Assembly: GCA_040386195.1 (NCBI GenBank)
Contig: JAZKFV010000006.1
Span: 18,059 to 82,058 of the forward strand
DNA from: Pseudomonadota bacterium
Lineage (GTDB): Bacteria; Pseudomonadota; Alphaproteobacteria; Rickettsiales; UBA1997
DNA: 64,000 bases
Reading direction: 5' to 3'
The notes below the pieces were generated by a model, which was not told the origin of the DNA, did not search any database, and was given only the letters and a program-made list of their open reading frames with translations. Below, in pieces: positions 61,756 through 61,832 of the stretch (the first letter of the stretch is position 1; every line of letters starts with the position of its first letter). Both the position numbers and the translations under genes were made by a program.

Positions 61756-61832
61756 AGTCGTAAGTCGTAAGTCATAAGTCGTTAGTGATTTACTTACGAC
61801 TTACGACTTATGACTTATAACTCACGACTATT
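61756..61832 (+). repeat. heptamer-array hairpin element filling the tsf-pyrH spacer
   Basis: Left array AGTCGTA AGTCGTA AGTCATA AGTCGTT AGTGATT (61756-61790). Right array ACTTACG ACTTACG ACTTATG ACTTATA ACTCACG ACTATT (61792-61832) runs directly into the pyrH ATG (61833). 61756-61772 pairs perfectly (17 bp) with 61792-61808. Confidence 0.9.

Follow-up and report, generated by a model that had tools for sequence, protein, structure and literature searches.

The 64-kb window examined here (the whole stretch of DNA analyzed, 64,000 nucleotides of contig JAZKFV010000006.1, from a bacterium placed in the Rickettsiales) carries five loci at which three to six tandem heptamers of the form ACT(T/C)A(C/T)N lie at the 5′ end of a gene. 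At three of these five loci, a complementary AGTNRTA array stands right after the stop codon of the upstream gene (gcvPB, tsf, and frr), and the two arrays are predicted to fold into a hairpin that occupies the space between stop and start. The elements are new members of the tandem heptanucleotide-repeat (STRR-like) class; both this class and the rule for its placement have been described before, while the exact unit was not found in the searchable literature. We favor, with a probability of roughly 0.55, a model in which the arrays would be lineage-specific expansions of heptanucleotide repeats, polar because of what is tolerated beside coding sequence, with a paired form that would act post-transcriptionally.

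Heptamer arrays and predicted hairpins in the window

The window was searched with a three-unit pattern (ACTYAYN ACTYAYN ACTYAY, two or fewer mismatches), which matched 25 times against 0.06 expected from dinucleotide-preserving shuffles. Tandem Repeats Finder (TRF) returned period-7 arrays at 18350-18384, 34644-34675, 48998-49021, 61756-61786, 61792-61829, 63111-63134, and 63178-63202, with copy numbers of 3.4 to 5.4 and 80 to 100% matches, that is, at least three head-to-tail units in each. A finder that makes no assumption about the unit also reported seven period-7 arrays in the window, and all of them belong to the ACT(T/C)A(C/T)N / AGTNRTA family. The five loci named in the initial annotation were recovered at, or within a few bases of, the positions that it gave. 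The arrays are as follows.

61753-61786, plus strand: tsf/pyrH 5′ arm of (AGTCGTA)-type heptamers, beginning 2 nt past the tsf double stop TAATAA (61745-61750)
61792-61832, plus strand: tsf/pyrH 3′ arm, ACTTACG ACTTACG ACTTATG ACTTATA ACTCACG ACTATT, abutting the pyrH ATG at 61833
63108-63134, plus strand: frr/uppS 5′ arm, TAGTCGTAAGTCGTAAGTCGAAAGT, starting 3 nt past the frr stop (63103-63105)
63172-63205, plus strand: frr/uppS 3′ arm, ACTTATG ACTCACG x3 ACTATT, including the probable uppS ATG (63176) and codons 1 to 9
18401-18420, minus strand: gcvPB/Bcr 5′ arm (mRNA sense), AGTTATA AGTGGTA AGT, overlapping the gcvPB stop TAG (18418-18416)
18348-18385, minus strand: gcvPB/Bcr 3′ arm (mRNA sense), ACTTACT ACTTACA ACTTACC ACTTATA ACTTATG, its last unit including the Bcr/CflA start (18350-18348)
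34644-34678, plus strand: unpaired tRNA-Ala array, ACTTACT ACTTATC ACTTACT ACTTACA ACTTCCA, stopping 3 nt short of the mature 5′ end of tRNA-Ala(GGC) (34682-34757)
48980-49021, minus strand: unpaired hemW array, ACTTACG x3, ACTCGCA, ACTCTCA, ATTTACA, inside hemW at about codons 3 to 16

All five ACT-type arrays read in the sense direction of the gene that follows, in agreement with the initial annotation, and these genes are spread over both DNA strands: gcvPB with a Bcr/CflA transporter gene behind it (minus), thrS divergent from tRNA-Ala(GGC), hemW (minus), and the run tsf-pyrH-frr-uppS (plus). Within the window, three loci are purely intercistronic or leader sequences and two lie in N-terminal codons. 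The proposal that every array ends at or within a start needs amending, as the hemW array and probably the uppS array lie inside N-terminal coding sequence and not ahead of it. The uppS start is probably the ATG at 63176, within the first array unit, in which case the array encodes residues 1 to 9 ahead of the conserved IPTHIAVIMDGN motif. The complementary arrays reported after the gcvPB, tsf, and frr stops are present, and read in the mRNA sense, the order at these paired loci is stop codon, (AGTNRTA)n, a loop of 12 to 40 nt, (ACTYAYN)n, and start codon. The pyrH and uppS copies end in the same ACTCACGACTATT, as had been pointed out, and the 5′ arms of tsf/pyrH and frr/uppS have TAGTCGTAAGTCGTAAGTC in common.

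Two weak three-unit matches, at 46591-46611 (minus, in a hypothetical gene) and 57581-57601 (plus, in a TonB-receptor gene), lie deep inside open reading frames (ORFs); they are probably not elements and were treated as chance or decayed matches. The likeness of GTAAGT/ACTTAC to a eukaryotic splice signal was treated as coincidence. The arrays with CG-type units (61792-61832, 63172-63205, and 48980-49021) contain the 9-mer TTACGACTT, the 3′ end of universal primer 1492R and hence complementary to AAGUCGUAA (1492-1500) of 16S rRNA; the non-CG arrays of the window lack this 9-mer, and it plays no part in the argument. A further intercistronic palindrome, at 39459-39549, lies between co-oriented minus-strand genes; it has 35-nt arms that are 83% complementary and ACTATAN-like units with a 14-nt period, and it may represent a heptamer hairpin in decay or something related to one.

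The paired loci are predicted to fold as hairpins of 17 to 34 bp, with z scores between -4.7 and -7.8, as follows.

61753-61832: tsf/pyrH predicted hairpin, -40 kcal/mol, z -7.8, stem base 2 nt after the stop and 0 nt before the AUG
63110-63203: frr/uppS predicted hairpin, -29.5 kcal/mol, z -4.7, stem base 4 nt after the frr stop, probable uppS AUG inside the 3′ arm
18417-18352 (minus): gcvPB/Bcr predicted hairpin, -21.7 kcal/mol, z -6.8, overlapping the UAG and ending 1 nt before the AUG

The perfect 17-bp stem claimed for tsf/pyrH was found at 61756-61772 / 61792-61808, where it lies at the center of longer arms, each of 34 nt, with 88% complementarity. The unpaired arrays, in the tRNA-Ala leader and in hemW, are predicted to be completely unstructured. 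An Rfam search, both at the gathering threshold and at E ≤ 1, assigned the arrays to no family, and only tRNA-Ala passed; the hairpin scored 29 bits against a plant microRNA model with a threshold of 249. GGG is absent from both strands of the window arrays, and the four tracts of at least three G residues needed for a G-quadruplex are therefore lacking.

A scan of the window found no sense-strand (plus-strand) promoter-like site at the arrays, and the idea that they carry a promoter of their own was dropped. Because only 0 to 3 nt separate array from start, with no promoter-like site between them, we infer that transcripts of the downstream gene necessarily include the array, as part of the flanking operons. 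Long, stable hairpins that directly follow stop codons could also be intrinsic or Rho-dependent terminators or attenuators acting between tsf and pyrH and between frr and uppS, and the single-stranded arm, G poor and containing C, resembles a Rho-loading site in composition. We nevertheless regard termination as extremely improbable. There is no U-tract or terminator-like call at any array, which bears out the earlier judgment that these are not canonical intrinsic terminators; the stems run on until 0 to 1 nt remain before the following start codon, a gap without any promoter-like site, so that termination would silence the essential genes pyrH and uppS; and two of the arrays lie inside coding sequence.

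Turnover among relatives and placement across phyla

The initial annotation had named a comparison of orthologous spacers in related genomes as a check on its proposal. In the nearest relatives compared, with about 86% DNA identity to the window, the tsf-pyrH spacer again holds inverted heptamer arrays, built from units that differ from those of the window. In L133, the arms are ATGGTTA... / ...TAACAAT (z -6.0); L130 and L131 have yet other sequences (z -2.9 and -5.1, respectively); and L122 and L125 have AGTTGTA / ACTTACA arms with a 170-nt foreign insert in the loop. The folding covered the spacers of L133, L130, and L131. Thus, at tsf-pyrH the two arms change together while the stop-to-start hairpin persists. 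The more distant L128 has spacers of 39 nt (tsf-pyrH) and 7 nt (frr-uppS) with no array, and no hairpin at tsf-pyrH. The gcvPB-Bcr spacer could not be compared in this way, since synteny downstream of gcvPB was not conserved in 80 metagenome loci.

Unit number also differs between close relatives, in steps of 7 nt. L122 to L124 have two GTTGTAA units where the near-identical L125 to L127 have one, an exact 7-nt difference. The N terminus of HemW reads MKNLPLSIYIH in relatives and MKNLRLTTYDSQLSIYIH in the window, whose hemW array is longer than that of L122 to L127 by 21 nt (three units, seven codons), in frame. A perfect 14-bp palindrome in L122 corresponds to an imperfect one in L125. Members of the same clade with about 80% GcvPB identity (about 760 kb in all) have arrays at about 1 per 45 kb, compared with 1 per 9 kb here, and are equally free of Shine-Dalgarno (SD) sites; given that arrays are about five times rarer in these clade members, the expansion is recent and lineage specific. 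Public sequence from the same organism consists of one 1,450-bp Logan contig (SRR26324626; L001, equivalent to window positions 61753-63202), which is 100% identical to the window. It ends inside heptamer arrays on both sides, indicating that the arrays fragment short-read assemblies.

Other small elements lie in the hairpin loops of relatives. An AT-rich element of about 170 nt with the terminal inverted repeat CACTTAGACA...TGTCTAA occupies the tsf-pyrH hairpin loop of L122 (6460-6630) and L125 (10945-11120); a related copy is present in another spacer of L135 (3390-3555), and the insert was not found in the window. The frr-uppS hairpin loop of L122 encloses another hairpin (7968-8002), GC rich and perfect over 35 nt, GGACGCCTCTAAAATTATAATTTTTAGAGGCGTCC, which the sister strain L125 lacks. 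Heptamer-hairpin loops appear to be insertion hotspots. In L148 (4566-4650) and L181 (1332-1416), inverted (TTTTGAT)n / (AAATCAA)n arrays lie between divergent genes, with the G-containing arm 5′.

The initial annotation had offered, as its second reading, a REP-like mobile repeat with a preferred insertion site. A mobile hairpin element that favors very short intercistronic spacers, akin to a miniature inverted-repeat transposable element (MITE), a repetitive extragenic palindromic (REP) sequence, or a Rickettsia palindromic element (RPE), would account for the outer ends shared by the tsf/pyrH and frr/uppS copies (TAGTCGTAAGTCGTAAGTC ... ACTCACGACTATT), for the short, array-free spacers at the same two sites in L128, for the small palindromic elements nested in the loops of L122 and L125, and for the breakage of short-read assemblies inside the arrays. 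We consider it very unlikely all the same. Unit variants are private to each locus, the loci differ in unit number and length, and the changes come in exact 7-nt steps, including the in-frame 21 nt of hemW. Two loci are single armed. The window copies have no target-site duplications, no transposase-like gene or REP-associated tyrosine transposase (RAYT) gene adjoins any of them, and Rfam yielded no match. The mobile-repeat reading was accordingly set aside.

To see how far the placement extends, one genome per species was scanned for arrays of four ACTYAYN units, which gave at least 120 array-bearing loci in Bacteroidota, Cyanobacteria, Acidobacteriota (Pyrinomonadaceae, Blastocatellia), Planctomycetota, and others. 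The counts that follow are all among the matches listed. Between co-oriented genes, ACT-type arrays (read in the mRNA) were nearer to the downstream start in 17 of 21 cases, while 29 of 34 AGT-type arrays were at the upstream stop, at a median distance of 7.5 nt (Fisher P = 1.8e-6; P = 2e-4 for unpaired arrays only). Unrelated heptamers in these loci obey the same polarity (P = 8e-5), and single G-rich arrays lie close to stop codons (median, 3 to 11 nt). Among paired arrays, 58 have the G-rich arm on the 5′ side and only 2 have it on the 3′ side. An inverted repeat is identical when read from either strand, and the G-rich-5′ order therefore suits a gene on either side of it, whereas the opposite order suits neither. 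The full architecture of stop, G-rich arm, loop, G-poor arm, and start was seen in many loci, among them L010, L011, L037 (Pyrinomonadaceae), L096 (Mucilaginibacter), L086, L003, L111 (Olivibacter), L025, and L020 (Terrimonas); Mucilaginibacter, Terrimonas, and Olivibacter can be cultured. The polar placement described by Rehm et al. (2015) and MacGregor (2015), with G-poor arrays before starts and G-rich arrays at or after stops, is also found at all five loci of the window. Strict placement, which the initial annotation had taken as the sign of an intercistronic RNA element, is thus upheld both in the window and across at least 120 loci; the RNA role itself is the most reasonable reading of that placement, and we keep it conditional below.

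These data also bear on the idea that the arrays are features of the DNA with no role in RNA. On this account, slippage-prone repeats and quasi-palindromes produced by template switching would be neutral, or would act as DNA (as a cruciform, a protein site, or a recombination hotspot), and their polarity would come only from what is tolerated near coding sequence. The palindromes are close to perfect in the Watson-Crick sense with no excess of G-U pairs on the sense strand, unit number is polymorphic between strains, the 14-bp palindrome is perfect in L122 and imperfect in L125, and arrays are rare in sister lineages, all of which would fit. Slippage was also the explanation given by Mrazek and colleagues for the excess of heptanucleotide repeats, at least as summarized by MacGregor (PMC4679880). 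We nonetheless consider a DNA-only reading unlikely, since the hairpin persists in the same spacer through complete turnover of its sequence in several species, and since tolerance explains poorly both the 58:2 arm order and the anchoring of single G-rich arrays at stop codons.

A post-transcriptional model and the points against it

The host makes little use of SD sites. SD-like motifs precede only 3 to 4 of about 50 window genes. The 20 nt upstream of window starts contain 6% G, compared with 18% overall, and relatives at about 80% protein identity are alike in both respects; a G-poor array therefore resembles an ordinary leader of this host, as its complementary strand would not. The closest EF-Ts homologues with a source name come from Rickettsiaceae, Rickettsiales, or Pelagibacterales metagenome-assembled genomes, and the window encodes ankyrin-repeat paralogues and a leucine-rich repeat (LRR) protein. 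The gene content fits a host-associated Rickettsiales-like bacterium, which is uncultured and protist-symbiont-like. Three tandem paralogous ORFs of about 640 to 690 amino acids occupy 8916-15052, with Pfam ankyrin repeats confirmed in the first (8916-10820), and the LRR gene (22440-24008) is made of 84-nt tandem repeats; these are effector-like proteins of a kind typical of host-associated bacteria.

Under the favored model, replication slippage would lengthen or shorten the arrays by 7 nt at a time, and facing inverted arrays would be kept as near-perfect palindromes by selection or by template-switch correction. Polarity would follow from the composition of the two strands. In SD-less leaders with about 6% G, only the G-poor ACUYAYN strand would be tolerated beside a start codon or a tRNA 5′ end: it carries G only at the variable seventh position, offers AUG only in the form of an ACUUAUG unit, and would not fold on itself. 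The AGUNRUA strand is G rich, with UAA, UAG, or UGA in all three frames, and could be accommodated nowhere but directly behind a stop codon. In the gcvPB/Bcr and tsf/pyrH spacers, the predicted stem base brings the upstream stop and the downstream start within 0 to 2 nt of it. The hairpin would then hide the downstream initiation region until a terminating upstream ribosome opened it or RNase III cut it, and such opening or cutting would set the translation of the downstream gene and the processing or stability of the mRNA. Unpaired arrays would supply an unstructured, G-poor leader or N-terminal region, largely free of start codons. It is in the mRNA, post-transcriptionally, that the paired hairpin would most likely act.

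Several considerations weigh against this model. The array before tRNA-Ala cannot act in translation, and a hairpin that buries the start region could repress translation instead of promoting it. The existence of SD-free relatives with few arrays indicates that the arrays are not required for SD-less initiation. In 6 of 8 folding predictions, the antisense strand matches or surpasses the sense strand, and there is no sense-strand enrichment of G-U pairs; without such an asymmetry or G-U signature, a palindrome selected in RNA and one maintained in DNA look the same by this measure. The repeat GGGAATC of Xanthomonas is polar and yet contains no stop codons, so that the stop-codon filter argument is not general (PMC4692102). 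The cross-phylum counts rest on crude longest-ORF gene calls. Finally, co-transcription, cleavage, and coupling are all steps that we infer for this organism.

It is also conceivable that the arrays are mRNA binding sites for a trans-acting factor, such as ribosomal protein S1 or a cold-shock-domain or RRM protein, that would recruit ribosomes to SD-less genes or block them there and so make these genes a regulon; this idea has been proposed for the TAACTGA repeats. The arrays do end 0 to 3 nt from SD-less starts, and 39% of the remaining heptamer units contain ACT, counted over the array-bearing loci listed. Moreover, TAACTGA rotated to ACTGATA (PMC4679880) and GACYAAT rotated to ACYAATG, or ACTAATG if Y is T (10.1101/2022.06.06.494920), share the skeleton ACTNAYN. 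On the other hand, the unit is not conserved in the same spacer between species with 86% identity, and many unrelated heptamers follow the same polarity. No common theme links the genes served (a transporter gene, a tRNA gene, hemW, pyrH, and uppS). We therefore find a dedicated binding factor improbable.

A wider form of the favored model can be put forward only tentatively, and we are inclined to doubt it: inverted-array hairpins that join a stop codon to the following start, always with the G-rich arm 5′ and the G-poor arm 3′, could be a widespread functional intercistronic device in SD-poor bacteria, including Bacteroidota, Cyanobacteria, some Acidobacteriota, and this Rickettsiales lineage. 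If so, the hairpin would either set a ribosome that is terminating close to the downstream AUG or serve as a target of RNase III, coupling or tuning the translation of neighboring genes, and 7-nt slippage would serve as a fast evolutionary tuning knob.

Neighboring features and known heptamer systems

Some other features of the window deserve mention. A GC-rich palindrome at 1287-1354, with 28-nt arms that are 93% complementary, lies between the two glycosyltransferase-28 domains of a murG-like ORF (583-1797, minus) that is otherwise AT rich; it looks like an in-frame insertion of the RPE type. Just 3′ of tRNA-Ala are genes for an OLD/retron-Eco8-like ATPase (35059-36882, minus) and a nucleotidyltransferase plus HEPN protein (36889-37749, minus). 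Both are defence-like, and the pair (35059-37749) may be an island integrated at tRNA-Ala. Ribosomal protein S2 (59792-60769, 325 amino acids) has a C-terminal extension that derives from 15-nt tandem repeats (60563-60757), and its length varies from 288 to 338 amino acids among relatives.

No other long simple repeats are as over-represented in bacterial genomes as tandem heptanucleotide repeats, which have been used for decades as fingerprinting targets. The window adds a new host group to this class, a Rickettsiales lineage with almost no SD sites, and does so with a compact and clean example. It also adds a case in which a stop-to-start hairpin is retained while its sequence is wholly replaced, and the scan adds one placement rule and one arm order that extend, among the matches listed, over several phyla and many units. 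Simple reporters could put the ideas of translation coupling and RNase III cleavage directly to the test. In practical terms, the arrays interrupt assemblies built from short reads, and they shift predicted starts and N termini, as in hemW and uppS.

The initial annotation did not recognize the motif as a described repeat family. As regards the exact unit this stands, since the unit strings of the window were not found in the searchable literature, where only unrelated eukaryotic papers matched; the class, in contrast, has been described (PMC4679880; PMC4692102; the cyanobacterial STRR sequences). Rehm et al. (2015) reported dispersed tandem heptamers, GGGAATC in Xanthomonas and GGGGA(T/C)T in Nostoc PCC 7120, mostly between co-oriented ORFs (PMC4692102). 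When the coding strand carries the G-rich sequence, this lies no more than 50 bp from a stop codon or overlaps it; when it carries the C-rich sequence, this lies at most 50 bp ahead of the next ORF. Inverted pairs occur occasionally, and most of the repeats are transcribed (PMC4692102). The window arrays share with these G-rich heptamers the dispersed tandem units, the polar stop and start placement, and the presence of some inverted pairs. They differ in having no G-tracts, and hence no possibility of a quadruplex, in their AT-rich Rickettsiales-like host, and in that three of the five window loci are inverted pairs that fill the entire spacer.

The TAACTGA repeats of marine Beggiatoaceae, some Cyanobacteria, and Bacteroidetes come in sets of 2 to 6 forward heptamers (MacGregor 2015; PMC4679880). 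The largest class of sets ends 1 nt before a start that lacks a ribosome-binding site, and translational control was proposed; some sets overlap ORF ends or sit inside ORFs, and the genes served are functionally unrelated (PMC4679880). The rotated unit ACTGATA fits the ACTNAYN skeleton, but this skeleton is all that is shared with the window units ACTTACG, ACTTATG, ACTCACG, and ACTTACN. In addition, the sense strand of TAACTGA repeats that precede starts contains stop codons, while in the window the stop-rich strand is the distal arm, and one inverted repeat is reported for TAACTGA, compared with three of the five window loci.

The cyanobacterial STRR sequences are likewise dispersed intergenic tandem heptamers, and their unit number is hypervariable. 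Their units are CCCCAGT, TTGGTCA, and CAACAGT. The window elements are not STRR1-3 in the strict sense, having the unit ACT(T/C)A(C/T)N and a host that is Rickettsiales-like, not a cyanobacterium; the TGGTCAT/TGGTCGT units in the frr-uppS spacer of L122 come close to STRR2. The first report of such heptamers, as cited by Rehm et al. (PMC4692102), was from Calothrix PCC 7601. In Nostoc, a preprint describes GAC(C/T)AAT repeats within 30 nt of starts, the deletion of which altered reporter output (10.1101/2022.06.06.494920), and Geobacter metallireducens has heptanucleotide repeat families with no assigned role (PMC2700814).

REP sequences, bacterial interspersed mosaic elements (BIMEs), and RPEs resemble the window elements in being short, dispersed palindromes, intergenic or in frame, that are transcribed within operons. 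They are copies of a defined consensus, however, moved by RAYT or by an unknown mechanism, with neither tandem 7-nt arrays nor 7-nt steps.

Another parallel is the 5′ untranslated region of the Haemophilus influenzae hmw genes, where a long (ATCTTTC)n hairpin is cut by RNase III, which controls both expression and repeat dynamics (PMC12721329). As predicted for the window, a heptamer array, in this case G free, and a G-rich arm pair immediately ahead of a gene, and in hmw1A the hairpin is transcribed and is experimentally an RNase III substrate. The window hairpins likewise place heptamer arrays in stems upstream of a start, with predicted lengths of 20 to 31 base pairs, and would be transcribed as well. 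Unlike the dispersed window loci, hmw1A is a single phase-variable virulence locus; its array is the 5′ arm, so that the order is reversed, and its G-rich partner is not itself a heptamer array, as both arms are in the window pairs.

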